From Mycolicibacterium smegmatis (GTDB lineage Bacteria > Actinomycetota > Actinomycetes > Mycobacteriales > Mycobacteriaceae): a DNA stretch of 32,000 nt. Within the stretch, counting starts at the first letter, position 1, and each line of letters opens with the position of its first letter. Below the pieces are notes generated by a model. That model did not search any database, was not told the DNA's origin, and saw only the letters and a program-made list of their open reading frames with translations. The stretch spans positions 4,500,001 through 4,532,000 of the forward strand of contig NZ_LN831039.1 in NCBI RefSeq assembly GCF_001457595.1. Reading direction: 5' to 3'. The translations under genes and the position numbers were made by a program. Shown piece after piece: positions 3,138-27,253 of this stretch.

Positions 3138-3179
3138 GGGTTAGCTGTCGTCACCCCGCGGGGTCAACCACCCGGGTGA
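3138..3179 (-). promoter_or_regulatory. composite element copy A, sense for SDR1-msrB-msrA
   Basis: Minus strand reads TCACCCGGGTGG-TTGACCCCGCG-GGGTGA-CGACAGC-TAACCC. It lies 71 nt upstream of the GTG at 3066. Confidence 0.7.
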
Positions 3180-3202
3180 ATCGGGTTCCGCGGCGCGGAC
3201 GT

Positions 3203-3244
3203 TCACCCGGGTGAGGAACCGCTGTGGGCGATGACTGTTCACCC
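3203..3244 (+). promoter_or_regulatory. composite element copy A', sense for the cupin-to-MFS operon
   Basis: Plus strand reads TCACCCGGGTGA-GGAACCGCTGT-GGGCGA-TGACTGT-TCACCC. It lies 58 nt upstream of the GTG at 3303 and is back-to-back with copy A. Confidence 0.7.
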
Positions 3245-3302
3245 GCCGCTGGTGAAGGCTGCTCGTCAAGACACCCGAATGAGAGGGAACGAAAGGGCAG
3301 CC

Positions 3303-3737
3303 GTGAGAGTCCTGAGAGCATTCACCGCACTGACCGCCGTTCTGGCGGTGGCGCACGCTGCCCATGCCGATCCGATGCCGCCGAACGCCAACCAGGCACC
3401 GGTGGTGCGCAAGGTGTTCGACCAGCCCAGCAATGTTCCGGGCAAAGTCGTGCAGGCCGTGACCGTCAGCTACCCACCCGGGTCACGCAGTGCGCCTCAC
3501 CACCATGCGAAGTCAGCGTTCATCATGGCTTACGTGATCTCAGGCGCGATCCGAAGCGAAGTCGAGGGCGCGCAGCCGGCGCGGATCTACCATGCCGGCG
3601 AGACGTGGAGCGAATCCCCTGGCGCACACCACACGATCAGTGAGAACGCCAGTGCCACCGAACCCGCCGAATTGCTCGCGGTCTTCCTGCTCGATGCCGG
3701 CGACGGTCCGCGCACCACAGACGACCCGACCCGTTGA
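3303..3737 (+). CDS. secreted cupin-domain protein, paralog 1
   Basis: Signal-peptide-like N-terminus VRVLRAFTALTAVLAVAHAAHA/DP. Cupin core YPPGSRSAPHHHAKSAFIMAYVISGAIRSEVEG...YHAGETWSESPGAHH. The GTG at 3303 is preceded by GAAAGGG. Alternative starts are 3279 and 3231, but 3231 lies inside element A'. Confidence 0.75.
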   Translation: MRVLRAFTALTAVLAVAHAAHADPMPPNANQAPVVRKVFDQPSNVPGKVVQAVTVSYPPGSRSAPHHHAKSAFIMAYVISGAIRSEVEGAQPARIYHAGETWSESPGAHHTISENASATEPAELLAVFLLDAGDGPRTTDDPTR

Positions 3738-3749
3738 GGCGGAGGGTCT

Positions 3750-4304
3750 GTGCACACGCCTGATCCGGTTCGGGTCGTCCGGTTTGCCCTTCGGTTGTCA
3801 CTGGCCGCGGCATTTCTGTCCGCCGTCGCAGACCGCTTCGGCTGGTGGGAGCCACTGGGCCAGGGCAACTGGGGCAGCATGAGTACCTTCGCCGAATACA
3901 CACACCAGCTTGTTCCGTTCTCGCCGGGATGGCTGCTCACCGCTATCGTCTGGGCGTCCACCGCAACCGAATCCGTACTGGGGGTGTTGTTGCTGACGGG
4001 CCGGTGGCCGAGATACGTCGGTGCGGCAACTTGTTTGGTGCTCATCGTGTTCGGTGTTGCGATGGCGGTCTCTCTCGGTGTCGAGTCGCCGCTGAGCTAC
4101 AGCGTGTTCACCGCCGCGAGCGGTGCTGCGGCCTACGCAGTGCTCGGCACCACATCGCCGCTTCATGCGCCGGACGGCAAGGAGTCCATCGCTCGGACAC
4201 CCCGTCGCACCTCGATGGGGGGCCCTCAGCGTATTGACGTCGAGGCGGGCCGGGCAGCCCAGGCTGTTTTGGTCGAACACCACTGGAAGCGATGGTGGAC
4301 ATGA
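3750..4304 (+). CDS. DoxX-like integral membrane protein
   Basis: 184-aa ORF with four hydrophobic segments. The GTG start is preceded by GGAGGG. The arrangement resembles DoxX/MhqP-type proteins (family call from memory). The Arg-rich C-terminal tail is unusual. Confidence 0.6.
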   Translation: MHTPDPVRVVRFALRLSLAAAFLSAVADRFGWWEPLGQGNWGSMSTFAEYTHQLVPFSPGWLLTAIVWASTATESVLGVLLLTGRWPRYVGAATCLVLIVFGVAMAVSLGVESPLSYSVFTAASGAAAYAVLGTTSPLHAPDGKESIARTPRRTSMGGPQRIDVEAGRAAQAVLVEHHWKRWWT

Positions 4305-5785
4305 TCCGACAAGAGTTCGACGTCGTCGTTATCGGCGGCGGTGTGGGCGGCGTGGCCGCCGTGCGAAAGCTCGCGGCGGCCGGGCTCACGGTCGCGATCA
4401 TCGAGGATCGGCTGGTCGGTGGTGAGTGCCATTACTTCGGCTGCAACCCGAGCAAGACACTCATCCGCCCGATCGAGGTGTTCAACCTGGCGAGAGCAGT
4501 CCCCGGGGTACGGGAGACCATTGGGAAAGAGATAGTTTACACCCCAAGAGTTTTCGACAAGCGCGACGCGATCATCGAGTACCTCTCGGACCACGACCGG
4601 ACCACCTCATTGCAACAGGCCGGCGCAGCGGTGTTCCACGGGTCCGGCCGATTGAGCGGTCCCAGAACCGTGCGGGTGACGCACACCGATCGCCACGCCG
4701 GCCACACCGACTCTGTCCTGACCGCGCTCCACGCGGTCGTTCTCGCCACAGGCACCCGTCCCAACATCCCGGCGGTACCGGGGTTGGCCCAGGCACGCCC
4801 GTGGACCAACAGGGATCTGACCACCATGACACACGTGCCTGGGCGCACTCTGGTCGTCGGTGGCGGTCCGATGAGCGTCGAGTTCTCCACGATCCTGGCC
4901 GGCCTGGGTTCCGAGGTGACGCATCTGGTACGCGGAAACTCATTGCTGGGCGGTTGTGAACCCGAAGCCCGTGAGATGGTCACGCAGTCGTTGCGAGACA
5001 ACGGCGTCACGTTCCACTTCGGCACGCAGTTGTCGGGGGTCGCCCGTCCGGTGCCGGCCGGGCCGGTCACCGTGACTTTCAAGAACCGGACCGCCGAGGT
5101 CGACGAGATCGTGCTTGCCGCCGGACGGCACACCAACACCGACGACCTCGGACTGGACACCGTCGGTCTTCGCAGTGGCGAAATCGTCGCAGTCAACGAC
5201 AATCTCCAGGCGGTCGGCGTCCCCGGCGGCTGGTTGTACGCTCTGGGCGACACCACCGGACGTGCACGGCTGTCACACATCTCGACCTATCACGGCCGAC
5301 TTGCGGCCGACATCATCGTCGCCCGGGCCGCCGGCCACCACCACCTGCTCGACGAGCTCTCCGCACGCGACGCCCACAGTCAGGCGCAGGTCATCTTCAC
5401 CGACCCTCAGTTCGTCAGGGTGGGGCGCTCGGAACATCAAGCCAGAGCGGAAGGTCTCGCGGTGAGGACACGAACTGCGCACTACCCCGAGGCCGTGACG
5501 CATTTCGCACTCAACAGAGACGAGTTCGTCGGATGGGCCAAACTGGTCATCGACGACGAGCACAACACCCTGCTGGGCGCGACGTTCGTGGGTCCGCAGT
5601 TCTCCGAGTTGGTGCAGGCAGCCACTCTGGCCATCGTCGCGAAGCTGCCCATCAGTCTCCTTCGCCACGCCGTCGCTCCGCACCCGACCATCAATCAGGC
5701 ATGGGATCCGCTCCTCGCGCAGGAAACCGAACTTGTTCAGCACCTGAGGACCTGCGAGCCGACAACGCACCGGGTGGCGCTGTGA
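4292..5785 (+). CDS. class-I FAD/NAD(P)-dependent pyridine nucleotide-disulfide oxidoreductase
   Basis: FDVVVIGGGVGG FAD motif, redox-active GGECHYFGCNPSK (CxxxxC), second Rossmann motif LVVGGGPMSVEF, and C-terminal HPT motif. An alternative ATG lies at 4301. Confidence 0.85.
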   Translation: MVDMIRQEFDVVVIGGGVGGVAAVRKLAAAGLTVAIIEDRLVGGECHYFGCNPSKTLIRPIEVFNLARAVPGVRETIGKEIVYTPRVFDKRDAIIEYLSDHDRTTSLQQAGAAVFHGSGRLSGPRTVRVTHTDRHAGHTDSVLTALHAVVLATGTRPNIPAVPGLAQARPWTNRDLTTMTHVPGRTLVVGGGPMSVEFSTILAGLGSEVTHLVRGNSLLGGCEPEAREMVTQSLRDNGVTFHFGTQLSGVARPVPAGPVTVTFKNRTAEVDEIVLAAGRHTNTDDLGLDTVGLRSGEIVAVNDNLQAVGVPGGWLYALGDTTGRARLSHISTYHGRLAADIIVARAAGHHHLLDELSARDAHSQAQVIFTDPQFVRVGRSEHQARAEGLAVRTRTAHYPEAVTHFALNRDEFVGWAKLVIDDEHNTLLGATFVGPQFSELVQAATLAIVAKLPISLLRHAVAPHPTINQAWDPLLAQETELVQHLRTCEPTTHRVAL

Positions 5786-6750
5786 GCCTCCGTGCGGCGG
5801 GTGTGCGCGCTTTCGGCGACGCGGTACAGACCCTCGAGATCCACGCGCCGCGCCCTTTGGCAACTGACGAGGTCCTCATCGAGGTTCGCAGCGCCGGTAT
5901 CGGCAATTGGGATGACATCATCCGCACCGGCGGATGGGATGTCGGCACGCGTCCACCACTGGTACTCGGCGTGGAAGGGGCCGGGGTCATCAGGAGCGTC
6001 GGCAGCGACCAGACCGGCTTCCGCATCGGCGATGAGGTCCTGTGTCACCCCGTTCCGCTTCGCGATCAAGGGACATGGGCGCCATACCTGATCGCGCCCG
6101 TCGGATCTCTGGCGCGCAAGCCGCCTGAGATCTCTTGGGAGACCGCAGCGGTCTTCCCGATCCCCGCGTTGACCGCTGAGCAGGTCGTCGGCGATGCGTT
6201 GGCCCTTGGGGATTCGGACACCTTGCTCGTCCACGGAGCGGGTGGGCTCACCGGTGGGCTCATCGTCCAGTTGGCGGCCCTGCGCGGAGTCGATGTGCTC
6301 GCCACCGCAAGCCCACGCAGCGCCGACCGGGTGCGCGGGTACGGCGCACGTGAGGTGCTCGACTACCGGGATCCGTTGTGGCCACATCACGCAAAGGCGT
6401 TGACAACAACCCCCATCCGCGCCGTCGCCAACGCGGCCCCCGGCGGCGCTGACGCGGCGATGACGTCACTGGCCGACAGCGGCCGATTGGTGACCATCAC
6501 ACCGGATCCGCCGGCATCAACCCGTGGCATCACCGTCGGTTCCGTCTACGTACGGTCCGACGGTGCTCAACTCGCCCGCCTGACGGCATTACTCGCTGCT
6601 CGGCAATTGCGCATGCCGGCCCCGCGGACCTGCCGTCCGGAGGAGGCAGCCGACGCTCTCGCGCGGGTCGTCGCAGGCGAAGAGCCCAGCGGTGTGGCCA
6701 TCAACCCGGGCCACCGCGCGGCCGGGGCGACGCCAGACCGCCCCGGATGA
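5782..6750 (+). CDS. MDR-family (zinc-type ADH / NADPH:quinone oxidoreductase-like) protein 1
   Basis: The GTG overlaps the upstream stop (GTGA). PLVLGVEGAGVIRSVG and VHGAGGLTGGLIVQLA motifs are typical of quinone-oxidoreductase-type MDRs. Confidence 0.8.
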   Translation: MSLRAAGVRAFGDAVQTLEIHAPRPLATDEVLIEVRSAGIGNWDDIIRTGGWDVGTRPPLVLGVEGAGVIRSVGSDQTGFRIGDEVLCHPVPLRDQGTWAPYLIAPVGSLARKPPEISWETAAVFPIPALTAEQVVGDALALGDSDTLLVHGAGGLTGGLIVQLAALRGVDVLATASPRSADRVRGYGAREVLDYRDPLWPHHAKALTTTPIRAVANAAPGGADAAMTSLADSGRLVTITPDPPASTRGITVGSVYVRSDGAQLARLTALLAARQLRMPAPRTCRPEEAADALARVVAGEEPSGVAINPGHRAAGATPDRPG

Positions 6751-6799
6751 CCGTGACTCACCCAACACCGAAGCAGTTTCAACACCGAGGAGCATCGCG

Positions 6800-7195
6800 A
6801 TGACAACCACCAGCACCAGGATCCACACCGGGGTCGGCGCCCACATCGCCACTGGATACGCCGATGCGATCGCCGTACCCAGCGCTGGCACAACGATTTA
6901 CGTGTCTGGGACTCCCGGGTTGCGTGAAGACGGCACCACGCCCGAGGACTTCACCGAGGAAGCCCGGCAGTGCTGGGCCAATGTCGAGGCCGCGCTCACC
7001 AAGGCGGGTGCCGCCCTCACCGACATCGTCTACATGCGGCAATGGCTCACGAGCCGCGACAACGTGTCGGCGTACATGGCGGTGAGCGGAGACGTCATTC
7101 GTCATCAACCCGCGGCCATGCTCACCATCGTCACCGGCCTGGTGTGGCCCAGCATCCACGTCGAGGTCGAAGTCGTCGCAGTCCTGCCGGCATGA
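6800..7195 (+). CDS. RidA/YjgF/L-PSP family protein
   Basis: ATG preceded by GAGGAG. 131 aa with ...IYVSGTPGLREDGT...EARQCWANVEAALTKAGAALTDIV...VEVEVVAVLPA, typical of the RidA fold. Confidence 0.85.
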   Translation: MTTTSTRIHTGVGAHIATGYADAIAVPSAGTTIYVSGTPGLREDGTTPEDFTEEARQCWANVEAALTKAGAALTDIVYMRQWLTSRDNVSAYMAVSGDVIRHQPAAMLTIVTGLVWPSIHVEVEVVAVLPA

Positions 7196-7593
7196 GTGAC
7201 CATCCTGTCATCGACCTGTCGGTCGACGAACTGCTCACCACGACACGTTCTGTACGCAGGCGTCTCGATCTCACCCGGCCCGTTCCTCTCGGCCTGATCC
7301 GGGAATGCCTGGAAATCGCGGTGCAGGCGCCGACGTCGGGCAATCTGCAGAACGCCAGCTTCATCGTGGTGACCGACGGCCGACAGCGCCGGGATATCGC
7401 TGACGTGTACCTGAGCACCTGGAACCAGATCGCCGCGTCGCCGTACGCGGTGGCCGACCGGTTCAAGGATGACCCAGTACGAAATCGTCAACAGCGCAGG
7501 GTCTCCGACAGCGCGGCCTACTACACCGGCACAACCTTCCACCGTGCCAAGCGGATCCCGCTCGACGATGTTCTGCACGTCGACCGATGGTGA
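7192..7593 (+). CDS. nitroreductase-family protein, apparently internally deleted (134 aa)
   Basis: ATGA overlap with the ridA stop. The N-terminus LSVDELLTTTRSVRRRLDLTRPVPLGLIRECLEIAVQAPTSGN matches nitroreductase-family N-termini. The extreme C-terminus TFHRAKRIPLDDVLHVDRW matches family C-termini. The roughly 80-90 residues normally in between are absent. Confidence 0.6.
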   Translation: MSDHPVIDLSVDELLTTTRSVRRRLDLTRPVPLGLIRECLEIAVQAPTSGNLQNASFIVVTDGRQRRDIADVYLSTWNQIAASPYAVADRFKDDPVRNRQQRRVSDSAAYYTGTTFHRAKRIPLDDVLHVDRW

Positions 7594-9035
7594 GTTTGCG
7601 CAGCGTGGCACCGACCCACCGTGCGATGGTGGTCGCGGTGACGGTGTCGATGGTCGCGTTCCTGGACTCCACGGTGATCAATTTGGCCCTGACAGCCATC
7701 GAACATGACCTGGGCGGCGGACTTCCGCTGCAGCAGTGGATCGTCGACGGCTACCTGTTGACCATGGCAGCCGCGATCCTGCCAGGAGGATCGATCTCGG
7801 ACCTGTTCGGACGTGTCCCGGTGATGCGGTTCGGGCTGGTGGTCTTCGGGGCCGGATCGGTTCTGGGTGCCGTGGCCGCCTCGGCAGAAGTGCTCATCGC
7901 CGCGCGGCTCATCCAGGGTCTCGGCGCGGCGTTCCTGGTGCCCGGCTCGCTGGCACTGATCAACACGGTCTTCGACAAAGCACACCAGTCTGCGGCGATC
8001 GGTGTGTGGACCGCGTGGACGGGAACCGCATTCGCGCTGGGCCCGCTGCTGGGCGGCCTGTGCGTCGACCTGCTCGGCTGGCGTTGGGTTTTTGTGCTGT
8101 CGGCGATCCCGATGGCTGCCGGGTACGCGTTGACGTTTTGGCTGTGCCCGGTGTCGGGGCACGTCGTGGGTGCCCGCGTCGACGTCGTCGGGGTCGTTCT
8201 GTCGTCGGTGGGACTGGCCGCGACCGTCTTCGCATTGATCGAGTCGCAACGGAGAGGCTGGGCCGACCTGGTCGTCGCCACGCCAGCGGTCCTGGGAGTC
8301 GTCGCGCTGTCCGGTTTCGTGGGCCGGCAGCGGCGCAGCACGCAACCGTTGCTTCCGTTGTCACTGTTCACGGTTCGCAATTTCACCGCAGTCAACCTGG
8401 TGACGGTGTTCGTCTACGGCGCGTTGACGCTGGGCTCGCTGACTGTCGTTCTCTACGCCCAGGAAATCGGCGGATACTCGGCCACCGCCGCAGGACTGGC
8501 CACGCTACCGATTCCGGTCATGTCGTTCATCCTCGCCCGCCGCGTCGGCCGTATCGCCGCGCGGACGGGACCTCGCATGTTCTTGATCGCCGGTCCCGCC
8601 CTGTCGGGTCTCGGGATGGCGCTGGTCCGTTTGAAGGACAATGGATTCCACGCCACGACGGATCTGTTGCCCGGTATGGTTGTCTTGGCGCTCGGCCTCG
8701 TCCTCACGGTCACGCCGCTGACCTCGATGGCTTTGGCGTCGGTTCCGACCGAGCACAGTGGTTTGGCCTCCGCAGTCAACAACGCCGCCGCTCGACTGGC
8801 GGCGCTGGTATCCGTAGGCTCGATGGGGATGATCACCGTCGGCTCGACCGCTGCCGGTTTCGTCAACCTCTTGAAGGTCAGCGCCGCGCTGTTCGTCCTG
8901 GGATCGTTGTGTGCCGCAGTGTGGATATCCGATTCCCTCGGGGGATACGGACCTGTGCCCTGCGACCTCGCGGCATCGTGCCGCGACCGGCCCGGTGTCC
9001 AGCCGGCACTGGCCGAACAGTCACCTCCGCAGTGA
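7587..9035 (+). CDS. MFS transporter, DHA2 (EmrB/QacA-like, 14-TMS) drug:H+ antiporter type
   Basis: 482 aa and highly hydrophobic. LDSTVINLALTAIEHDLGG and GGSISDLFGRVPVM motifs. The start overlaps the upstream stop. Confidence 0.9.
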   Translation: MVSLRSVAPTHRAMVVAVTVSMVAFLDSTVINLALTAIEHDLGGGLPLQQWIVDGYLLTMAAAILPGGSISDLFGRVPVMRFGLVVFGAGSVLGAVAASAEVLIAARLIQGLGAAFLVPGSLALINTVFDKAHQSAAIGVWTAWTGTAFALGPLLGGLCVDLLGWRWVFVLSAIPMAAGYALTFWLCPVSGHVVGARVDVVGVVLSSVGLAATVFALIESQRRGWADLVVATPAVLGVVALSGFVGRQRRSTQPLLPLSLFTVRNFTAVNLVTVFVYGALTLGSLTVVLYAQEIGGYSATAAGLATLPIPVMSFILARRVGRIAARTGPRMFLIAGPALSGLGMALVRLKDNGFHATTDLLPGMVVLALGLVLTVTPLTSMALASVPTEHSGLASAVNNAAARLAALVSVGSMGMITVGSTAAGFVNLLKVSAALFVLGSLCAAVWISDSLGGYGPVPCDLAASCRDRPGVQPALAEQSPPQ

Positions 9036-9812
9036 CGGCAGGCTACCGTCGGCGAGGTACTTCTTCTGGACATGTGCGTCGATCCAATCGGCGTAGCGAG
9101 TCGAGAAGATCGTGGCGTCTGGATTGGGCGCGAGGGTGTGATCGTCGATCACCGCGCCGAAGTACGGTGCACCGGGATCGGTCACGACCCGGCGCTGATC
9201 TCCCCGGGCCGCAAGACCGGTACGGACGAAGTCGTCCATGCCGATGACTTCCGGCCCAGCGATCTCGACCACCCCGTTGGCAGGCTGACCGAGTGCAGCA
9301 CGAGCGACGGCTGTGGCGACATCATCGGCCGCGATGGGACGGAACGAGGCATGCGGCAACCTGACAACATCGCCGTCGGTCGCGGAATCGGCCAATCCGA
9401 CCGCAAATTCGTAGAAGGGTGTGGCCCGCACGATGGTGTACGGCCGGCCGGAATCCCTGATCAGGTTCTCCTGGGCCGCCTTCGCGGTGTTGTAGCCGCT
9501 GTCCGGCATGCTCTGCGCACCCACCACCGACAGCACGACGTGATGGGAGACGCCTGCCTGCCACTCGGCCGAGAGCAGGTTCGCGGTGGTGGTGACGAAG
9601 AACCGCATCACCGGGTCGTCGTCGAACACCGGTGAACCGGACACGTCGACCACGACATCCGCGCCCGCGACCGCGGCGGCGAGGCCTTCCCCGGTGAGTG
9701 CGTCGACACCTGAGCGACGGGATGCGGCGGTGACGTCGTGGCCCTGCGCACCGAGCTTCGCCGCCACTTTGGCGCCGATCAGGCCACGACCGCCGATGAC
9801 CACGATCTTCAT
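9021..9812 (-). CDS. NAD(P)H-binding, NmrA-like atypical SDR
   Basis: MKIVVIGGRGLIGAKVAAKL N-terminal Rossmann motif, 263 aa. It converges on and overlaps the MFS gene end by 15 nt. Confidence 0.85.
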   Translation of the reverse strand: MKIVVIGGRGLIGAKVAAKLGAQGHDVTAASRRSGVDALTGEGLAAAVAGADVVVDVSGSPVFDDDPVMRFFVTTTANLLSAEWQAGVSHHVVLSVVGAQSMPDSGYNTAKAAQENLIRDSGRPYTIVRATPFYEFAVGLADSATDGDVVRLPHASFRPIAADDVATAVARAALGQPANGVVEIAGPEVIGMDDFVRTGLAARGDQRRVVTDPGAPYFGAVIDDHTLAPNPDATIFSTRYADWIDAHVQKKYLADGSLPSLRR

Positions 9813-9841
9813 GAGAGTCCTTTCACAACCGGTCGAATCAG

Positions 9842-10279
9842 TCAGAGGATTCGCCAGTCGTCGTCGGCCACGATGTGCATGGCCGATTCCTCGGCTGACG
9901 CGGCGCCGCCGTCGATACCGACGTCGTAGGCGCGGTAATCGGAAGTGGAATCAGTCGGGTCGATCTCGAAGGCGAGAAGCCGGCCCGCGCGGGCATCGCC
10001 GACCTGATTGTCGATGGGTTCGCCATCGCTGTCGACGCTGTCACCGATGCCGTCGCCGTCCCAGCGGTCGGTCGTGTCTGGCACCTCGCGGGCCAGACGG
10101 CGCGTCAGACTCTCATGCATACGCGCCTCACGCTCCGTGAGCCCCCACGCACCCAGTTCTCGCGGGCTTTCCGGAGGTGAATAGCCTTCGTCCAGACCGA
10201 TACCGGTCTGCTCGGAGTCCAGGCTCTCCTCAGGTTCGAGGAGATGGCTCGAGACGTCGTCGAATTCAGAAATACCCAT
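9842..10279 (-). CDS. small highly acidic protein (DUF5709-like, assignment from memory)
   Basis: The ATG at 10279 is preceded by GAAACGGAGA. 145 aa rich in D/E, with ...GLDEGYSPPESPRELGAWGLTEREARMHESLTRRLAREVPD... The part of the ORF upstream of this ATG overlaps element B. Confidence 0.6.
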   Translation of the reverse strand: MGISEFDDVSSHLLEPEESLDSEQTGIGLDEGYSPPESPRELGAWGLTEREARMHESLTRRLAREVPDTTDRWDGDGIGDSVDSDGEPIDNQVGDARAGRLLAFEIDPTDSTSDYRAYDVGIDGGAASAEESAMHIVADDDWRIL

Positions 10280-10351
10280 CGGTGCGGTCTCCGTTTCTTC
10301 TCGCGGTGTGACCGCGCAGAGCGATTGCTGTTTCGAGCATGGGGCGCATGA

Positions 10352-10392
10352 AGGCGAGTTGTCATCACCCTGTGCGCGATTCACCCGGGTGA
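10352..10392 (-). promoter_or_regulatory. composite element copy B, sense for acidic protein / NmrA-like genes
   Basis: Minus strand reads TCACCCGGGTGA-ATCGCGCACA-GGGTGA-TGACAAC-TCGCCT. The spacer is 1 nt shorter than in the other copies. It lies 72 nt upstream of the ATG at 10279. Confidence 0.7.
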
Positions 10393-10407
10393 GCGAATCA
10401 GATGGAG

Positions 10408-10815: not shown

Positions 10816-10876
10816 CCACTTCCCCTTCGAGTTCGCTGACCGGACGATGCGGTGTGTCACAGACTTCATTCGGGCA

Positions 10877-16747: not shown

Positions 16748-16863
16748 CGTGCGGCGGCAAGCTCAGTCGACGAAACACTGCCGCCCGCGAAGCAACGCCG
16801 TGGCGGACGTCCACGCGTCACCGGGCACCGGGCTCTCCGGCTCGTCGAGATCAAGGAGTTCAT

Positions 16864-19760: not shown

Positions 19761-21709
19761 CAGGCCGTCAGCGTCTCGTCGTCGTCGGATCGGCCGTCGT
19801 CGGATCGGCCGTCGTCGGATCGGCCGTCGTCGGCCTGCAACAGGTGTCGCGCAGCCTTGTCGATACTTGCCGCGTCTATCGCGGCATCCGCGAGCAGTTC
19901 GGCAGGAGTTCCCGAGCCCGGCATGGCGCGAACGGCCAGGTGCATCAGCTTCAGACGCGGTGTTTCCGCACCCGAGATGGCCTCGAGCACGGCCGAGCCG
20001 AGTCCACCCTCGGGGTGATGGTCCTCGGCGATGACCAATCGTGCACCGGTGTCGCGCACAGCTTCGAGCAGCGTGTCCCGGTCGATCGGCTTGACGGAGT
20101 AGACATCGATGACGCGGGCCGCGATCCCGTCGCGGTGCAGCGATTCGGCGGCGGCCAGGCATTGGTGGACGGTGACACCGGCACCGATCAGGGTGACGTC
20201 GTCGGCGCTGCTGGACCGCAGCGTGTGGGAGCCGCCGATGGTGAACACGGTGGCCGGCTCGTAGAGGACCGGGTAGGCACCACGGGTGGTCCTCAGATAA
20301 CGGACCCCATCGGCATCCGCCATCAGGTCGACCAGCGCGACCGTACTTGTCGCGTCGCTGGGATAGAGGACGGTCGCGCCGTGGACGGACCGCATCATCG
20401 CCAGGTCTTCCAGCGCCATCTGAGAGGGTCCGTCGGCACCGATCTCGACGCCGGCATGGGACCCGATCAGGCAGATGTTCGCCTGTGAGACGGCCGCCAT
20501 GCGGATGAAGTCATGCGCCCGGGTCAAAAACGCGGCAAAGGTCGATGCGAACGGAATGTAGTGGCGGACATGGAGACCGACGGAAGAGGCAACGAGTTGT
20601 TGCTCGGCGATGAACATTTCGAAGTATCGCTCGGGGTGGTGCTCGGTGAACTCTGCGGCGCCGGTGGAGTTGCTGACTTCGCCGTCGAGCGCCACCACCC
20701 GGCGATTGACCGCGCCCAGTGCGGCCACCGCGGCTCCGTATGCCGCCCGGGTGGCGACCTTCTCACCCGGTGCGTAACGCGGCCGGTCCGAGAACCCATC
20801 CGGATTGCCCGCCCCGGGCGCCGACGATTGACCGGAGCGTGACGCCGGTTTCGGTCCCGCGACGGTCAGACCCTCGACCTCGCCGAGCTCGGCCAGTGCG
20901 CGCCGCGCCATTTCGGGCGGGAAAGCCTTGCCATGCCAACCCTCTCGGTCCTCGACTTCGCTGAAACCGCGACCCTTGACGGTTCTCGCGAGGATCACCG
21001 TCGGCTGCGTTGTGTTACGCGCGGCGGTGAGCGCCTGGTCGATGGCCTCCAGGCGATGGCCGTCGACGGAGATCGCCCGCGCACCGAAAGCTTCCACGCG
21101 TTTGGCGTAGGTCTCCAGATCCCAACCGAACTCGGTGGGTCCGCGCTGGCCCAACCGGTTGACATCGACGATGACGGTGAAGTTCGAAAGGCCGTAATAG
21201 CCGGCCTTGTCCAGTGCCTCCCAGACCGACCCCTCGGCCATCTCACTGTCGCCGCACAGCGTCCACACGTGAAATCCAGACCTGTCGAGGAACTTGCCCG
21301 CGAGCGCGACGCCGACCCCGATGGCGATCCCCTGTCCCAGTGAGCCGCTGGCAACGTCGACCCACGGCAACACAGGCGTGGGGTGGCCTTGCAGGCGTGA
21401 GCCGAAGCGGCGGTAGCCGGTCATCAGTTCCGTGTCGGTGATGACACCGACGGCTTTGAACGCGGCGTACAACAGCGGCGAGGCATGCCCTTTGGACAGG
21501 ATGAAGTGGTCGTTGTCAGGGTGATCCGGGCGCTCCCAGTCATAGCTGAGGTGGCGAGCGAGCAGAACCGCCGTCAGATCGGCGGCCGACATGCTCGAAG
21601 TCGGATGTCCGGAGCCGGCGGCAGTGCTGGCTCGGATGGCGTCGGCGCGCAGTTGCCGCGCCAGTCGCCCCACCAGCGTGGTGTCGATGCGATCGTTCGA
21701 TTCATTCAA
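19760..21709 (-). CDS. transketolase-family protein (single-chain, about 650 aa)
   Basis: [41 protein letters not shown] (ThDP GDG-like), and [18 protein letters not shown] motifs. The TTG start at 21709 overlaps the ctaD stop by 8 nt. Confidence 0.85.
19781..19835. repeat. 15-bp perfect tandem repeat, 3 full copies plus a 10-bp partial copy
   Basis: GTCGTCGGATCGGCC occurs three times (19781-19825), followed by GTCGTCGGCC. On the minus strand it encodes (DDGRS)x3 at the C-terminus of the transketolase. It lies 21-75 nt upstream of the RraA-like start. Confidence 0.9.
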
Positions 21710-23453
21710 CGGGATGGCTCCTCGCCTGTGGTTGTGGAAGCGTCACCGCACCGGGTCCTCCCTGGGTGCGCCCGGGGTGGGACTCGGCACGAAGCCGCTC
21801 GATCATGTGGGGATAGTGCAACTCGAAAGCTGGTCGCTCGGAACGGATTCTGGGCAGCTCGGTGAAGTTGTGCCGCGGCGGCGGGCAGCTGGTGGCCCAC
21901 TCCAGGGAGTTGCCGTAGCCCCACGGATCGTCGACCGTGACGGGCTCGCCGTATCGCCAGCTCTTGAACACGTTCCACACGAACGGCAGCATCGAGACGC
22001 CCAGGATGAACGAACCGATGGTGGAAACGATGTTGAGGGTGGTGAACCCGTCGGTGGGCAGGTAGTCGGCGTATCGGCGTGGCATGCCTTCTGCGCCGAG
22101 CCAGTGGTGCACCAGGAATGTGGTGTGGAATCCGATGAGGGTCAGCCAGAAGTGCAGCTTGCCGAGCCGGTCATCCAGCAGTCGGCCCGTCATCTTCGGA
22201 AACCAGAAGTACACCCCGGCGTACGTTGCGAAGACGATCGTGCCGAACAGCACGTAATGGAAGTGCGCCACGACGAAATAGCTGTCGGTGACGTGGAAGT
22301 CCAGTGGCGGGCTGGCCAGGATCACCCCGGTGAGCCCACCGAGCAGGAACGTCACGAGAAAGCCCACCGAGAACAACATCGGCGTCTCGAACGTCAACTG
22401 GCCCTTCCACATGGTGCCGATCCAGTTGACGAATTTGATCCCGGTCGGCACCGCGATCATGAACGTCATGAAGGAGAAGAACGGCAGCAGCACCGCGCCG
22501 GTGGCGTAGAGGTGGTGGGCCCACACCGCGATCGACAGAGCTCCGATGGAGATGGTGGCGTAGACCAGCGTGGTGTAGCCGAAGACCGGTTTGCGGGAGA
22601 ACACCGGGAAGATCTCGGTGACGATGCCGAAGAAGGGCAACGCGATGATGTAGACCTCGGGATGGCCGAAGAACCAGAACAGGTGCTCCCACAACATGGT
22701 CCCGCCGTTGGCCGAGTCGAAGACGTGTGCGCCCAGATTGCGGTCCGCGGCCAGGCCGAACAGCGCCGAGGTCAGAAGCGGGAAAGCGACCAGCACGATC
22801 ACGCTGGTCACCAGGATGTTCCAGGTGAAGATCGGCATCCGGAACATGATCATGCCCGGTGCGCGCATGCACACCACCGTGGTGATCATGTTGACCGCAC
22901 CGAGGATGGTGCCCAGTCCACCGACGATCAATCCGAAGATCCACAGATCACCACCCGCGCCCGGCGAGTGCATGGCGTTCGACAGCGGGGTGTAGGCGGT
23001 CCACCCGAAGTCGGCGGGCCCACCCGGGGCGAGGAAGCCGCCGAGTGCGATCGACGCACCGAAGAGAAAGAGCCAGAACGACAACGCATTCAGTCGCGGA
23101 AACGCCACATCGGGGGCGCCGATCTGCAGAGGCACCACGAGGTTGGCGAACCCGAACACGATGGGAGTGGCATAGAACAGCAGCATCACCGTGCCGTGCA
23201 TGGTGAACAGCTGGTTGTACTGCTCGTTGGAGAGGAACTGCAGGCCGGGTACCGCCAACTCGGTGCGGAGCAGCAGTGCCATCAATCCGCCGATGAAGAA
23301 GAAGATGAAGCACGCGACGACGTACATCATCCCGATCAACTTGTGGTCGGTTGTGGTCACCAACTTGTACAGCAGCGTCCACCTGGGGCCGAGCCGTTGC
23401 GGAAACGGTCTCCGCGCCAGGAGTTCTCCTGCCGATGGAGCGTGGGTCGTCAA
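21702..23453 (-). CDS. ctaD: cytochrome c oxidase (aa3-type) subunit I, orphan copy
   Basis: [36 protein letters not shown] and AHFHYV metal-ligand motifs are all intact. The TTG at 23453 is preceded by AGGAGAG and gives the usual N-terminal length; the ORF track extends to the GTG at 23498. No ctaC or ctaE in the window. Confidence 0.9.
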
Positions 23454-23545
23454 CGGTCCGGTTCTCTCCTGTCCGTCGCACGTGCGACGGTCTTCCACCC
23501 GTCGCCGCGCATGCCCTTGTCGAGACTCGATCCTGGCCCGGTACC

Positions 23546-23587
23546 GGATGAGCTGTCTTCACCCAGCCGCACCGATCACCCGGGTGA
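23546..23587 (-). promoter_or_regulatory. composite element copy D, sense for ctaD-transketolase-rraA
   Basis: Minus strand reads TCACCCGGGTGA-TCGGTGCGGCT-GGGTGA-AGACAGC-TCATCC. It lies 92 nt upstream of the TTG at 23453, and its palindrome end (23587) is 28 nt downstream of the GNAT stop at 23616. Confidence 0.7.
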
Positions 23588-23615: not shown

Positions 23616-24221
23616 TCAGGTCCGCGAGGCACAACCCGGTTCCGGCAGATCCAGGTCCGCCTTCCGGAGTCGATACACCTGCAGCGACAACCCGTAGTAC
23701 TTCGTGGTCTCGCCGACCCACTCCATACCGACCCGCCGCGCGGTGGCCACGGCACGACGATTTCCTGGCCGCATGACCGCGAACACCTCGCTGAGGCCGG
23801 CGTTCTCGAAGGCCTGGTGCGCGACGGCATGGCCGGCTTCCGAGCCGTATCCGTGACCCCACATCGCGGGGGCGATCTGCCATCCGATCTCCAGGTCGCT
23901 GCGCCCGGGCGGAAGCGGGAGAAGAGTCACTCCCCCGATCACCTGTCCGGATCGGTGGTCGGTGATTGCCCATCGCCCCAACGGCAATCCCTCGGAGTCG
24001 CTCTCGGCGATCCAGGAGCCCAACACATGTCGCATGTCCTTGCGGTCGACGGCGTTGGGCAGCGCCGGACACAGCCAGCGAGCCACCTCCGGGTCTCCGT
24101 AGATCGCACACGCCGCGACATCATCGTCCAGACGCCACGGCCGCAACATCAGACGGTGTGTGCGGATCTGTCGCGTCACGGGATCGAGTTCGACGTGGCG
24201 TCGATCGCCTGAGGGGTTCAT
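23616..24221 (-). CDS. GNAT-family N-acetyltransferase (RimJ/RimL-like)
   Basis: THRLMLRPWRLDDDVAACAIYGDPEVARWL ... EIGWQIAPAMWGHGYGSEAGHAVAHQAF ... The ATG at 24221 is 5 nt after the SDR2 stop. Confidence 0.8.
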   Translation of the reverse strand: MNPSGDRRHVELDPVTRQIRTHRLMLRPWRLDDDVAACAIYGDPEVARWLCPALPNAVDRKDMRHVLGSWIAESDSEGLPLGRWAITDHRSGQVIGGVTLLPLPPGRSDLEIGWQIAPAMWGHGYGSEAGHAVAHQAFENAGLSEVFAVMRPGNRRAVATARRVGMEWVGETTKYYGLSLQVYRLRKADLDLPEPGCASRT

Positions 24222-24226
24222 CAGTG

Positions 24227-24997
24227 TCAGTTCCGCCCCGCCGTGAATCCTCCGTCGACGTTGAGGATCATTCCCGTGATCCAACTCGACTCGTCGGAGA
24301 GCAGATACCTGATGGCGCCTGCAATGTCGGTCGGAGTACCGACTCGCCCGAGCGGGTGAAGCGGTGCGAACTCGCCGAGTGTGGCATCGATCTCGTCCGT
24401 GGGGAACCACCGCTGAAGAGCCGGGGTTCTCACCGCGGCCGGCGACACCGCGTTGACGCGGATCTTGTGCCGGGCGAGTTCAATGGCCAGATTGTGGGTG
24501 AGCGCGTGCAGGCCGGCCTTCTGCATCGAATGCCCCGTCGAAGGAGTGACGCCGAGCGCCTGATGCGCCCACATGCTGCCGATGTTGACGATGGAACCAC
24601 CATCGCCGCCGGCGATCATGCCGCGCACCACGGTCTGGGTGAGGAAAAACAGCGCATAGTTGAGCTCCATGTACGCGTCGTAGTCCAGTTGCCCGTACTC
24701 GAGAAACGGTTTGGGGATGAAGAATCCGGCCGCATTGACGAGCAACGTGGCGTCTCGGTGTTGCTCGCCGAGCACGCGCTGGATATCGGTGACGGCATCG
24801 CGGTCGGTCAGCTCCGCGGAAATACCCCAGGCGTCGCCACCCCGGTTCACCAGATCGTCCAGGGTCTCGTCGACACGGGCTTTCGAGTGCCCGACGACCA
24901 CCGCGCTGCCACCGTGGTCGACGACGTCGGCGGCGACCCGGCGGCCGATACCGGCGCTGCCGCCGACGACGACCACCTTCTTCCCCTCCAGATGCAT
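24227..24997 (-). CDS. SDR-family oxidoreductase, paralog 2 (catalytic Tyr replaced by His)
   Basis: GGAGGGAG RBS, then [18 protein letters not shown]. Colinear with, and by eye about 70% identical to, the SDR at 2290-3066. The YxxxK position reads GHSMQK (CAT codon). Confidence 0.85.
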   Translation of the reverse strand: MHLEGKKVVVVGGSAGIGRRVAADVVDHGGSAVVVGHSKARVDETLDDLVNRGGDAWGISAELTDRDAVTDIQRVLGEQHRDATLLVNAAGFFIPKPFLEYGQLDYDAYMELNYALFFLTQTVVRGMIAGGDGGSIVNIGSMWAHQALGVTPSTGHSMQKAGLHALTHNLAIELARHKIRVNAVSPAAVRTPALQRWFPTDEIDATLGEFAPLHPLGRVGTPTDIAGAIRYLLSDESSWITGMILNVDGGFTAGRN

Positions 24998-25026
24998 GTT
25001 CGGGCTCCCTCCCTCGGCGGATGTGT

Positions 25027-25935
25027 TCACGAGCGGTGCAACTCGACGTTCTGCGGATGGAAATCCATTGATATGTGGGGCCTCTCGGGATCCAGGTGAA
25101 CGGATTCGAGTTCGCACTTGAGCACCGACGTCGTGGCGTTGTGCGGGTCGCTCGCAGCCAACTCGACCACCAATCGCAGCTGCGTCGATTCGGTCATGCC
25201 ACGTCCCGAGACACGGATCGTGGGCAACTCGCTGAGGATGTCGAGTCGCATCGGTATGACCCGCATGGGGTGGCGAGGTGGATCCGCGCCGTCACCTGCG
25301 GTGTTCTGCGGAGCATCCAGCGCGATACGCCCGGCATCGGCGAGCAGCAGGTCGTTCCCCAACGCCTTGCCCGTCAGGGTGATCGAGATCGAGCCCGCCG
25401 GATGCGAATGCTGCGGATCGTCGACCGTGAGCGTCGCGCTTGCCTGGGCCAACACCAGTTCACGAGTCACCTCGTGCCACCGGTCCCGCAACACATCATC
25501 GACGCTCGGCGTCACCGCGTCACCGGTTTTCGTGACGCGCAGTGGTTCTCGGTAACCGAGCTCTTGCTCGTCGACCCGCTCCAGTAGCGGTAGAGCCGGA
25601 TCGCGCAACATCGTCAGCACGAAGCTGCAGGGAATGTCGGTGCGGAGATTGGTGTCCTGGTAGTGGATCACGTCACCGCCCGGCCCCCAGAACGCGTCCC
25701 CGGCGCGGAGAACACGTGCCGGCTCACCGTCGCGCTCGAAGAGCATCTCCCCGGCGATCATGTAGCCGAATGCCGGACCCCCGGGGAGACGATGCGGCGG
25801 GGCTCCACGGGCGCCGGGCGGATGGTTGACGAGTACGGTGATCACGGCGACCTGGGCAGGTATGTGCGGCGACCGGACTTCCTGGATCACCGTGATCGTC
25901 GAGCCGGATTCGGGATCAGCCCAATCCTGCAGCAT
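25027..25935 (-). CDS. cupin-domain protein (paralog 2) fused to a roughly 190-aa C-terminal domain of unknown function
   Basis: N-terminal HPPGARGAPPHRLPGGPAFGYMIAGEMLFERDGEPARVLRAGDAFWGPGGDVIHY aligns with the cupin at 3303-3737. The ATG at 25935 is preceded by GAAGGAAA. An alternative TTG at 25968 overlaps the upstream stop. Confidence 0.65.
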   Translation of the reverse strand: MLQDWADPESGSTITVIQEVRSPHIPAQVAVITVLVNHPPGARGAPPHRLPGGPAFGYMIAGEMLFERDGEPARVLRAGDAFWGPGGDVIHYQDTNLRTDIPCSFVLTMLRDPALPLLERVDEQELGYREPLRVTKTGDAVTPSVDDVLRDRWHEVTRELVLAQASATLTVDDPQHSHPAGSISITLTGKALGNDLLLADAGRIALDAPQNTAGDGADPPRHPMRVIPMRLDILSELPTIRVSGRGMTESTQLRLVVELAASDPHNATTSVLKCELESVHLDPERPHISMDFHPQNVELHRS

Positions 25936-25964
25936 TGGATTTCCTTCGTCGCGATCGTGAACGC

Positions 25965-26885
25965 TCAATCCTCTGTGACGCGCACGATCGTCTTTCCCGT
26001 GGTGCGCTTCTTTTGGTTGAAGGCGCTGGGCGCGTCGGCGAGCGGCACCACGCGCCCGACGACGGGCTTGAGCCGTCCCGTCCGTACCCGAGCGGCGAGG
26101 TCGGCGAGACGTGCGCTGTCAGGTTCGACGAGGAAGTACAGTGCCCGTCCGTCGCGCGGCTGGGTCTTGGGTGGCTCGGCGAGGGTGACCAGCGTTCCTC
26201 CGGCGCGTACGAGCGCGATCGAACGTTCCATGATCTCTCCGCCGATCACGTCGAACACCACGTCGACCTCCCCGGCGTCTTCGAGCTTGTCATCGTCCAG
26301 GTCGAGGAAAGTGTGGGTGCCCAGCTCGAGAGCCCGATCCCGATCGGCGGCCCGCCCGGTGCCGATGACCCGCGCCCCCACCTCACGAGCGAGCTGCACC
26401 GCAATGGAGCCGACACCACCTGCCGCACCGTGGATCAGCACGGTTTGTCCCGCGACGAGCTGCGCGTGCTCGAACAGGCCCTGCCACGCGGACAACCCCG
26501 AGATCGGCAGCGCCGCGGCCAATGTGTGGTCGACGTCGTAGGGCAACGGTGCGAGGTGACGCGTCTCCACTGCGGCGTACTCGGCCAGGGAGCCGTTGCG
26601 TGCCCAGTCTGCCAATCCGAACACGCGCTGACCGATCGTGAAACGTGTGGTGCCGTATCCCAATTCGACCACAACACCCGACAGTTCGTGTCCGGGCACA
26701 CTGGGTGTGCGGTCGCGTCCCGAGCGCTCGGTCCACGTATCCGGCCAGTCGAGTTCGCCCCGTGTGAACCCCGCGGCGTGCACACGTACGACGACGTCGT
26801 TCTCGGAGACCACGGGATAGGGCAGTTCTGTCAGCGACAGACCGGAGACGCCGGCATCACGATCGGAAACTGTCACAGCCTTCAT
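25965..26885 (-). CDS. MDR-family NADPH:quinone oxidoreductase / zinc-type ADH-like protein 2
   Basis: AGGAGGA RBS. MKAVTV..., VPGHELSGVVVELG, VLIHGAAGGVGSIAVQLA. ATGA overlap with the upstream small ORF. Confidence 0.85.
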   Translation of the reverse strand: MKAVTVSDRDAGVSGLSLTELPYPVVSENDVVVRVHAAGFTRGELDWPDTWTERSGRDRTPSVPGHELSGVVVELGYGTTRFTIGQRVFGLADWARNGSLAEYAAVETRHLAPLPYDVDHTLAAALPISGLSAWQGLFEHAQLVAGQTVLIHGAAGGVGSIAVQLAREVGARVIGTGRAADRDRALELGTHTFLDLDDDKLEDAGEVDVVFDVIGGEIMERSIALVRAGGTLVTLAEPPKTQPRDGRALYFLVEPDSARLADLAARVRTGRLKPVVGRVVPLADAPSAFNQKKRTTGKTIVRVTED

Positions 26886-27166
26886 TGCGCATCCTCCTGA
26901 TAAGGGTTGGGGAGGCCGACCGACTCGCCGTCTCCATTGGCGATGGCACCCGTCGGGCCGGCCGCGGACCATTGCTGAACGCTGACGAGCTCGAGTCCCA
27001 GATCGCGGACGCGGTCGAGCAGTCCGTACAGTTGTGACTGGTCCCGGATCTCGCCGACGAACATCGACTCTGTCGCACCAGCTTCAAGGCGCATCCCCTC
27101 CAACGCGGACCCGAACCGCTCGGTGACGCACCCCCGAATGCAGATCTGGTACATCGTCGGCTGCAT
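26882..27166 (-). CDS. small (94 aa) hypothetical protein, first gene of the operon
   Basis: GGAGGG RBS. MQPTMYQICIRGCVTERFGSALEGMRLEAGATESMFVGEIRDQSQLYGLLDRVRDLGLELVSVQQ... It resembles small actinobacterial proteins of unknown function (recollection only). Confidence 0.55.
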   Translation of the reverse strand: MQPTMYQICIRGCVTERFGSALEGMRLEAGATESMFVGEIRDQSQLYGLLDRVRDLGLELVSVQQWSAAGPTGAIANGDGESVGLPNPYQEDAQ

Positions 27167-27211
27167 GATGCCCTCCGATCGCCATCTGCCGACCAAGCGT
27201 TCACCGGACAG

Positions 27212-27253
27212 GGGTGAGCAGTCATCACCCCGCATGTGAGATCACCCGGGTGA
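27212..27253 (-). promoter_or_regulatory. composite element copy E, sense for the small-ORF/QOR2/cupin2/SDR2/GNAT operon
   Basis: Minus strand reads TCACCCGGGTGA-TCTCACATGCG-GGGTGA-TGACTGC-TCACCC. It lies 45 nt upstream of the ATG at 27166. Confidence 0.7.

Follow-up and report, generated by a model that had tools for sequence, protein, structure and literature searches.

Seven copies of a four-hexamer promoter element in a redox gene cluster of Mycolicibacterium smegmatis: candidate sites for a MalT-family regulator

Background

A short composite sequence recurs seven times within one stretch of the chromosome of Mycolicibacterium smegmatis, each time in front of a gene, which raises the question of what this sequence does and which protein, if any, reads it. 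The stretch considered here (the window) comprises 32,000 nucleotides, positions 4,500,001 to 4,532,000 of contig NZ_LN831039.1 (assembly GCF_001457595.1), and holds the cluster MSMEG_4418-4444 of strain mc2 155. The element has the consensus TCACCCGGGTGA-N10/11-GGGTGA-nGACnnn-TCACCC, that is, four hexamers of which the first two form a perfect 12-bp palindrome. A preliminary description had listed the seven copies and had proposed a clustered redox-stress regulon under an undescribed cis element; it had missed a fifth conserved block, downstream of each copy, as well as two large LuxR-family ATPase regulators encoded at the centre of the cluster. With both taken into account, we propose, with a probability of about 0.6, that the copies are sites for a MalT-family activator on activator-dependent sigma-A promoters of an oxidative/chlorine-stress regulon, and that MSMEG_4430 is the likely binder.

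The element in the window

The 12-mer TCACCCGGGTGA was found eight times in the window at no more than one mismatch, against 0.22 matches expected, and none of 100 dinucleotide shuffles gave eight, which bears out the earlier estimate of an occurrence far above chance. A scan for the whole composite (27 positions: palindrome, N10-12, GGGTGA, n, GAC, nnn, TCACCC) rendered exactly seven sites at zero to two mismatches, with the same coordinates, strands and letters as had been described (Table 1). The remaining matches at up to eight mismatches were shifted or overlapping readings of the true copies, or noise, and each of 20 shuffles gave zero or one match at this threshold. The eighth match to the 12-mer, at 22322 inside ctaD, is not accompanied by the other hexamers and was discarded as a chance match.

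All seven copies are intergenic and oriented toward a gene, in agreement with the preliminary description, and a plausible start codon is located 34 to 116 nt downstream (45 to 116 nt in that description). The segment between the third and fourth hexamers, formerly called an invariant YGACNNY, is in fact nGACnnY, its first base being T in five copies, C in copy A and A in copy D. No degenerate extra copies were detected by the composite scan upstream of either of the two LuxR-family ATPase genes (LAL1 and LAL2, see below) or of the gene of a 455-aa flavoprotein (27428). Copies A and A' are arranged back to back, the centres of their palindromes being 35 bp apart, so that the 107 bp from 3138 to 3244 contain eight hexamers and two predicted divergent promoters, and either palindrome would be a far-upstream site for the opposite promoter.

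A -10-like hexamer at a fixed distance

The fifth conserved block is a hexamer, VAnnnT, which begins after exactly 10 nt past each of the seven copies. It is also present in 107 copies of the element from other genomes (see below), with A at position 2 in 102 of the 107 and T at position 6 in 104, whereas T is the first base in none of them. Of the mapped promoters of M. smegmatis, 79% have ANNNT at -13 to -6, and 63% of those have TANNNT, the VANNNT promoters being weaker (PMC6448022). The -10 of the element is therefore always present and never optimal, as would be expected if the promoter is designed to rely on an activator, and the best explanation for the element and the hexamer 10 nt downstream is that together they constitute one activator-dependent promoter, as far as can be judged from the sequence.

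If transcription starts about 7 nt after the T of the -10, an assumption from which all block positions are derived, the palindrome TCACCC/GGGTGA would extend from about -64 to -53. GGGTGA-nGAC would lie at about -41 to -32, with the end of the sense-strand GGGTGA at about -36, in the place occupied by the promoter-proximal MalT box in Escherichia coli and by GGATGA in Actinoplanes. The fourth hexamer, TCACCC, would fall at about -28 to -23, and the putative weak sigma-A -10, VAnnnT and never TAnnnT, at about -12 to -7.

Copies in other genomes

A scan of GTDB, with one genome per species, was carried out with a pattern made up of the palindrome and GGRYGAnGAC only, the fourth hexamer and the -10 being left unspecified, and gave at least 148 matches in at least 120 loci. 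Among the matches listed, the fourth hexamer reads TCACCC within one mismatch in 107, and exactly in 82. These 107 copies belong to other Mycobacteriaceae and to Actinomycetota at large, so that the element recurs more than 100 times across actinobacteria. In them, conservation is limited to the hexamers, their spacing and the -10, and the spacer and flanks hold almost no information, which is the same pattern that had been noted for the window. A coding open reading frame (ORF) on the same strand is found 15 to 211 nt downstream in 90 of 105 testable copies, versus 49 of 104 in the opposite direction, and the genes behind the external copies are orthologues or functional relatives of those in the window. 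The earlier view of a selected cis element, as opposed to a mobile repeat, is thus upheld by the restricted conservation, the fixed orientation to genes and the orthology of the genes downstream.

The four hexamers of each element fit GGRYGA/TCRYCC in direct and inverted orientation. At position 26, in the third hexamer, G is found in 66 of 87 external copies and A, which gives GGATGA, in 21. Many copies read CGGATGAGGAC, a near-perfect MalT-box core, and many read GGATGAGG, the MalT-box core. The remaining 41 matches, including some in beta-proteobacteria, lie inside conserved coding sequence without the fourth hexamer and the -10, and were rejected as chance; such false matches come from eight loci of Burkholderiales-type metagenome-assembled genomes and from some actinomycetes (three loci).

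A MalT-like regulator linked to the element

The two LuxR-family ATPases are encoded by adjacent genes. LAL1 corresponds to MSMEG_4430, and its ORF has 873 aa versus 759 aa in the public annotation; the start is probably near 13233. It has the Pfam domains TPR_MalT and GerE and a Walker A motif GWGKT, and is MalT-like also in the published annotation. Residues 133-536 match residues 2-405 of E. coli MalT (PDB 8bob) with an E value of 2e-60, and comparison with the NCBIfam MalT model gave an E value of 4e-116 and 389 bits. By these sequence matches LAL1 is a true MalT homologue. The score is below the equivalog cut-off of 537 bits and neither the window nor the element loci contain maltodextrin genes, for which reason LAL1 was rejected as a MalT orthologue governing a maltose regulon. 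LAL2 is a protein of 943 aa to which the number MSMEG_4431 is assigned from gene order; it shares the recognition helix TVKTH with LAL1, the likeness between both proteins being limited to the helix-turn-helix (HTH) domain. In a yeast two-hybrid screen, gp54 of mycobacteriophage Giles was found to bind residues 567-759 of MSMEG_4430, called the HTH DNA-binding domain, an interaction that is not required for infection; in the same screen gp34 bound the cupin MSMEG_4441 of unit E.

Linkage between the regulators and the element was addressed in both directions. Clustering was applied to the GC3-supported ORFs of the 88 loci that bear the element, each of 8 kb, and SDR (21 loci), LAL1 (20) and LAL2 (13) came out as the commonest families. 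Out of 22 LAL1-type ORFs (21 belonging to these loci and one to the window), about 15 have the element within some 125 nt of a gene end, either just after the stop codon, as is the case of element C, or divergent at the gene start, and such contacts are also seen in Egibacteraceae, Microlunatus, Microthrixaceae and Thermoleophilaceae. Conversely, 80 metagenome loci were chosen for nothing but their homology to aligned LAL1 orthologues, to which they are 36-52% identical, and about 20 of the 80 carry the element or a variant of it directly beside the MalT-like gene. The variants include TCACCCaGGGTGA, TCACCTAGGTGA, TCATCCgGGATGA and CCCCTAGGGG+GGGTGA. No LAL2 homologue was found in these 80 loci.

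In the same set, the recognition-helix residue in NT-x-[K/R/H]-T/S-H was compared with the half-site present within about 330 nt. TCACCC(N)GGGTGA is nearby in 13 of 21 genes with a Lys helix and in none of 19 with an Arg helix (Fisher p = 2e-5), counts and p value that are not corrected for phylogeny. For the His helix, an AGGTGA-type site, TCACCTAGGTGA, is nearby in three of five by regular expression, and in a fourth by eye, again uncorrected for phylogeny. This co-variation is the best available argument for an MalT-like HTH domain reading the hexamer, which it suggests.

Induction by hypochlorite

Expression data were taken from the supplementary table of a published RNA-seq analysis of M. 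smegmatis exposed to 1 mM sodium hypochlorite (NaOCl), in which the cluster was not discussed (Hillion et al. 2017, PMC5430705). Sixteen genes of the cluster, among which units A, A', B, D, E and F (named after their elements) are represented, show log2 fold changes of 0.84 to 3.63, the genes behind the copies being induced 2 to 12 fold (PMC5430705). The values are 2.30 for MSMEG_4418 (msrB1) and 2.46 for MSMEG_4419 (unit A), 1.15 for MSMEG_4426 (unit A'), 1.86 for MSMEG_4428 and 1.39 for MSMEG_4429 (unit B), 1.19 for MSMEG_4433 and 1.15 for MSMEG_4434 (unit F), 1.27 for MSMEG_4436 and 1.02 for MSMEG_4437 (unit D), and 1.68 for MSMEG_4438 (PMC5430705). In unit E they are 1.93 for MSMEG_4439, 2.41 for MSMEG_4440, 1.69 for MSMEG_4442, 2.27 for MSMEG_4444 and 3.63, the maximum of the cluster, for MSMEG_4443, while MSMEG_4430 (LAL1) itself shows 0.84 (PMC5430705). 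Induction thus extends to at least six of the seven units, the ORF of unit C not being mapped to a gene number.

These published data support the proposal that the units are co-regulated under oxidative stress. As regards the wider proposal of a clustered redox-stress regulon under an undescribed element, the regulon part is supported by the co-induction with hypochlorite, and "undescribed" holds for this element and regulon and fails for their kind, which is the MalT-box class, with GGA(T/G)GA as the MalT box and TCATCC-N5-GGATGA as the Actinoplanes site. The genes behind the element in other genomes encode thioredoxin, a TrxB-like reductase, MsrA, MsrB, a molybdopterin oxidoreductase with a FAD/NAD reductase, DUF417, Cys-rich DUF326 and DUF4440 proteins, and two kinds of extracytoplasmic function (ECF) sigma factors, a content that, on sequence assignments, fits one stress theme.

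Mode of action and alternatives

In the mechanism that we infer, which comprises physical binding and its stoichiometry, the start sites, the inducer, and activation as opposed to repression, a signal of oxidative, chlorine or electrophile stress would open the STAND ATPase MSMEG_4430. The LuxR-type HTH domains of the multimerised protein would then bind the four GGGTGA-type half-sites, with LAL2 (MSMEG_4431) perhaps acting together with LAL1 or being modulated by it. The oligomer occupying the hexamers would bring the sigma-A RNA polymerase to otherwise near-silent VAnnnT promoters, and about seven units would be turned on, with functions in the repair of thiols and methionine, the reduction of quinones and aldehydes, alternative respiration, and efflux.

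Several observations weigh against this reading. The response to NaOCl is broad, about a quarter of all genes exceeding a log2 fold change of 0.8 (a rough estimate from file position), so that the induction supports co-induction of the cluster by oxidative or chlorine stress and says little in favour of a dedicated regulator. A scan with a generic sigma-70 consensus of E. coli type gave no promoter at A, A', B or C, although this is expected for weak actinobacterial -10s. The fourth hexamer would fall within the -35/-10 spacer (-28 to -23), which is more typical of a repressor or of a MerR-like mode than of MalT, and the half-sites of the palindrome are 6 bp apart centre to centre, an awkward distance for a classical HTH dimer. 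Expression of two genes of the cluster, MSMEG_4424 and MSMEG_4428, falls in a sigF mutant, though the authors list no SigF consensus for either. In addition to the uncorrected phylogeny of the co-variation counts, the palindrome is missing from the vicinity of 8 of the 21 MalT-like genes with a Lys helix. Finally, LAL2 also has a Lys-type helix and is also linked to the element, so that it, too, is a candidate binder.

It can therefore be asked whether LAL2 is the sole or main binder, LAL1 being a target or an auxiliary. Besides having the same TVKTH helix, LAL2 is encoded divergently to element F, at 63 nt from it, and has homologues in 13 of the 88 element loci, several of them divergent from the element. 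Its homologues are, however, absent from all 80 LAL1-centred loci, some 20 of which bear the element or a variant; outside the Mycobacteriaceae only the MalT-like type adjoins the element, and the less MalT-like paralogue of Actinoplanes had slight effects only (PMC7567727). We consider LAL2 a minor candidate for the main role.

It is also conceivable that the element is an operator at which a repressor, bound to GGGTGA-N7-TCACCC and to the palindrome and possibly looping the DNA, is released by stress. GGGTGA-N7-TCACCC would be centred at about -32 and flanks a -35-like TGAC, a classic geometry for occlusion, and two sites about 30 bp apart could cooperate. Yet a -10 whose first base is T in 0 of 107 copies speaks for a promoter in need of assistance, not of silencing, and the MalT family, including the Actinoplanes homologue, consists of activators. 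Moreover, no gene of a repressor type, such as TetR or MarR, co-occurs with the element; the TetR gene of the window (29540) has no homologue in any element locus, and TetR was discarded as the regulator. Repression is in our opinion unlikely.

A third alternative is an unlinked factor or an alternative sigma factor, e.g. SigF, with -10 GGGTA, the LAL genes being mere members of the regulon. The decrease of MSMEG_4424 and MSMEG_4428 in the sigF mutant could be adduced for it, as could the superficial likeness of GGGTGA to the SigF -10 and the fact that ECF sigma genes are themselves behind the element in other species. But a conserved GTTT-like -35 is missing 14-19 nt upstream of both GGGTGA hexamers and, as already mentioned, the authors report no SigF consensus; the positions preceding the two hexamers read CACCCGGG or are unconserved, and a SigF promoter (GTTT-N14-19-GGGTA) was accordingly rejected. 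A model based only on a sigma factor leaves unexplained the dyad symmetry and the conserved ANNNT 10 nt past the element, and the half-site co-varies with a helix residue of the adjacent MalT-like protein. This alternative appears quite unlikely to us.

Some other known types of site were also compared with the element and rejected. The CRP/FNR consensus is TGTGA-N6-TCACA, a 22-bp dyad; the gap between GTGA and TCAC in the element is 7 nt in all copies, not 6, and the upstream pair is TCAC-N4-GTGA. A SigH/ECF promoter would require a matching -35/-10, which is absent, there being no GGAA...GTT motif in the element, and a four-site operator like that of OxyR is not supported, since there are no ATAG repeats.

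A REP/MITE-like repeat or a structured RNA (leader or attenuator), to which four mutually complementary hexamers with possible alternative hairpins and the multicopy condition might lend some appeal, is very improbable: a scan of the whole window against Rfam 15 gave 0 matches at the gathering score, flanks and spacer are unconserved without terminal repeats or duplications, orientation and distance to the gene are fixed, the conserved -10 downstream implies that the element itself would not be transcribed, and the element is kept upstream of orthologous genes across families of Actinomycetota.

The cluster and its surroundings

Published gene numbers anchor the map of the window: MSMEG_4427 for the MFS pump, MSMEG_4430 for the MalT-like protein, MSMEG_4441 for the cupin and MSMEG_4442 for QOR. 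As MSMEG_4442 is at 4525892-4526812 of NC_008596, a window coordinate x corresponds to NC_008596 4,499,927 + x. The domain assignments in Table 1 are from Pfam.

Table 1. Elements, -10-like hexamers, downstream units and other genes of the window
Feature	Positions	Strand	Description
Element A	3138..3179	-	toward SDR-MsrB unit; 2/27 mismatches
Element A'	3203..3244	+	toward cupin-to-MFS operon; 1 mismatch
Element B	10352..10392	-	10-nt spacer; toward DUF5709 / NAD(P)-binding NmrA-like unit
Element C	10877..10918	-	begins 36 nt past stop codon of MalT-like gene; toward small Cys-rich ORF
Element F	16706..16747	+	divergent region LAL2 / Ndh-like gene; toward Ndh-like gene
Element D	23546..23587	-	toward ctaD-transketolase-RraA
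Element E	27212..27253	-	perfect copy; toward small protein-QOR-cupin-SDR-GNAT
-10-like, A	3122..3127	-	CAGGCT; predicted transcription start ~3115
-10-like, A'	3255..3260	+	AAGGCT; predicted transcription start ~3267
-10-like, B	10336..10341	-	CATGCT; predicted transcription start ~10329
-10-like, C	10861..10866	-	AAGTCT; predicted transcription start ~10854
-10-like, F	16758..16763	+	CAAGCT; predicted transcription start ~16770
-10-like, D	23530..23535	-	CAGGAT; predicted transcription start ~23523
-10-like, E	27196..27201	-	AACGCT; predicted transcription start ~27189
Unit A	1884..3090	-	SDR (MSMEG_4419), MsrB (MSMEG_4418); cut off downstream by IS3 insertion
Unit A'	3279..9035	+	cupin, DoxX/MauE-like, pyridine-nucleotide-disulfide oxidoreductase, Zn-ADH/QOR, RidA (MSMEG_4424), nitroreductase, MFS pump (MSMEG_4427)
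Unit B	9021..10279	-	DUF5709 protein, NAD(P)-binding NmrA-like protein (MSMEG_4429/4428 region)
Unit C	10408..10815	-	small Cys-rich ORF, no family assignment; homologues in 3 element loci
Unit F	16864..19091	+	Ndh-like flavoprotein (MSMEG_4433), Cof-type HAD phosphatase (MSMEG_4434)
Unit D	19125..23498	-	CtaD paralogue (MSMEG_4437), transketolase (MSMEG_4436), RraA-like
Unit E	23616..27166	-	94-aa ferredoxin-fold protein, QOR (MSMEG_4442), cupin (MSMEG_4441), SDR (MSMEG_4440), GNAT (MSMEG_4439)
LAL1 (MSMEG_4430)	10954..13575	-	MalT-family STAND regulator: nucleotide-binding domain, arm, TPR-like sensor, LuxR HTH
LAL2 (MSMEG_4431, from gene order)	13812..16643	-	AAA_16 + LuxR HTH, 943 aa
IS3-family insertion	446-1887	-	orfA (1459-1887, HTH_Tnp_1), orfB (446-1459, rve integrase)
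MFS pump MSMEG_4427	7587-9035		last gene listed for unit A'
94-aa protein gene	26885-27166	-	first gene behind element E
455-aa oxidoreductase gene	27428-28795	+	pyridine-nucleotide-disulfide oxidoreductase
MazF/PemK-type toxin gene	29168-29497
TetR gene	29540-30127

The gene that had been taken for msrA in unit A is orfA of the IS3-family insertion. The insertion adjoins the MsrB gene and may have displaced the end of the unit; MsrA/MsrB pairs are found in element-driven units of other genomes. The MFS pump MSMEG_4427 of unit A' carried L236R in mutants selected with tryptanthrin and W167stop in a line exposed to bedaquiline, and this efflux pump, if controlled by the element, may link the regulon to drug tolerance.

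The 455-aa pyridine-nucleotide-disulfide oxidoreductase is encoded divergently from unit E without an element of its own in the window, and has homologues in 29 element-bearing loci, in at least one of them directly behind the element. Just to the right of the cluster are the genes of a MazF/PemK-type toxin and of the TetR protein; no homologue of the TetR, MazF, FMO or IS genes of the window was found in any element locus.

Two kinds of genes found behind the element elsewhere are absent from the window. The gene of a DUF417 membrane protein of about 175 aa ranks second in frequency among the first genes behind the element (11 copies); DUF417 is the family of E. coli RclC/YkgB, from the reactive-chlorine resistance operon. 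An ECF sigma factor of about 211 aa, SigH-like by eye, is behind the element in about ten loci of other mycobacteria and uncultured Actinomycetota, and a second ECF type in four loci (L109, at 7049-7712, being among the loci concerned).

The small protein of unit E

The first gene behind element E encodes a protein of 94 aa, MQPTMYQICIRG..., and we take MSMEG_4443, the most strongly induced gene of the cluster, to be this gene. The protein falls into no family of Pfam or NCBIfam and has 594 homologues; among the 120 listed, few are named in the source and those are almost all hypothetical, and identity to the orthologues of other Mycobacterium species is about 70-88%. Its AF2 model (pLDDT 68) has a beta-alpha-beta-beta-alpha-beta arrangement, like that of ferredoxin, ACT or PII proteins, and a fold search with it gave generic matches only, none of them significant. 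In the loci selected by homology to LAL1, a homologue of the small protein typically follows the MalT-like gene and the element, and in distant Actinomycetota no other gene comes immediately behind this pair as often. The 94-aa protein could be a partner of the regulator and, by analogy with MalK, MalY and Aes in the case of MalT, might act as its partner or as a feedback inhibitor.

Implications

If the reading that we prefer is true, MSMEG_4430 would acquire an operator and a local regulon of about 25 genes, with hypochlorite as the inducing condition, in an organism that is tractable as a model. Mycobacteria have many large LuxR-family ATPases, and for almost none of them is a regulon or a signal known. 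The promoter design is present in the non-tuberculous mycobacteria M. colombiense, M. intermedium, M. asiaticum, M. shimoidei and M. mantenii, and in Mycolicibacter. There it would drive genes for thioredoxin, Msr, efflux pumps and a SigH-like sigma factor, and may bear on survival of the oxidative burst of neutrophils and macrophages and on drug tolerance. In addition, the co-variation with Lys, His and Arg offers a testable recognition code for MalT-type HTH domains and, in practical terms, the element might serve as a tightly off, stress-inducible promoter cassette for mycobacterial genetics.

A much broader possibility, which we raise tentatively, is that a MalT-type STAND ATPase is both master sensor for and activator of another oxidative/chlorine-stress regulon, the second besides that of SigH-RshA, to which it would run parallel, and widespread in the Actinomycetota. 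STAND regulators would then sense redox or electrophile damage, a class of stimulus that is not known for them. Its ancestral core would be the regulator, the four-hexamer promoter and a ferredoxin-fold protein of 80-94 aa, and in some species it would stand above a SigH-like ECF sigma factor.

Comparison with known regulatory systems

A full-text literature search for the 12-mer and its sub-strings rendered only primers and unrelated organisms, and a search for MSMEG_4418-4444 found no study of the cluster and only incidental mentions (MFS mutations, the phage two-hybrid screen, a sigF microarray and an in-silico list of LuxR proteins). The kind of system is known, namely a STAND/LAL activator with multi-hexamer boxes at the promoters of a clustered regulon, but the four-hexamer architecture, the distribution throughout the Mycobacteriaceae, the redox-stress content and the induction by NaOCl are not described in the literature searched.

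With the chlorine responses of E. coli (RclR-rclABC, MsrPQ, RidA) the likeness is one of functional analogy only, as DUF417, a pyridine-nucleotide-disulfide oxidoreductase, a molybdopterin Msr-like enzyme and RidA appear on both sides; DUF417 is the family of RclC, the disulfide oxidoreductase is RclA-like, and the molybdopterin enzyme is likened to MsrP. The regulators are unrelated, those of E. coli being the AraC-type RclR and the two-component system HprSR. The regulons of SigH-RshA and SigR-RsrA also include trx, trxB, msrA, msrB and quinone/NAD(P)H oxidoreductases and, like the present one, respond to NaOCl. SigH-RshA consists of an ECF sigma factor and a zinc-containing anti-sigma factor and uses GGAAY-N17-19-GTT promoters, unlike the STAND activator on sigma-A-type promoters proposed here.

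The likeness to MalT of E. coli and Klebsiella includes a homologous regulator, several asymmetric boxes per promoter in both orientations and, as predicted here, one box over the -35 and a weak core promoter dependent on the activator. In contrast to E. coli MalT, LAL1 is no orthologue (389 versus 537 bits), no CRP is evident, and regulon and signal are unrelated to maltodextrins. We know of no mal promoter with either the perfect 12-bp palindrome or a hexamer inside the spacer.

The closest parallel is Actinoplanes sp. SE50/110, where MalT (ACSP50_3915) activates 40 of the 51 genes of a genomic region through TCATCC-N5-GGATGA, a motif that the authors related to the E. coli box GGGGA(T/G)GAGG (Droste et al. 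2020, PMC7567727). The site lies over the -35, its end being 34.4 nt upstream of the start site, and the region holds two MalT-like genes (PMC7567727). In both cases a MalT-like LuxR ATPase and a second paralogue are encoded inside a large co-regulated cluster, a hexamer lies over the -35 with its sense-strand end about 35 nt before the start (predicted for M. smegmatis), the regulon is unrelated to maltose metabolism genes, and motif and cluster are kept in relatives with a shuffled gene order. By contrast, the layout differs, being TCACCC-N0-GGGTGA, N11 and GGGTGA-N7-TCACCC here, and the half-site is GGGTGA instead of GGATGA, although the latter is the form of the third hexamer in the 21 external copies mentioned above. 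The Actinoplanes system, moreover, was studied genetically, and the one described here by sequence analysis. Finally, redox and stress enzymes make up the content here, versus peptidases, transporters and proteins of unknown function in Actinoplanes, and the inducing condition is NaOCl, according to the published RNA-seq, as compared with maltose in Actinoplanes.

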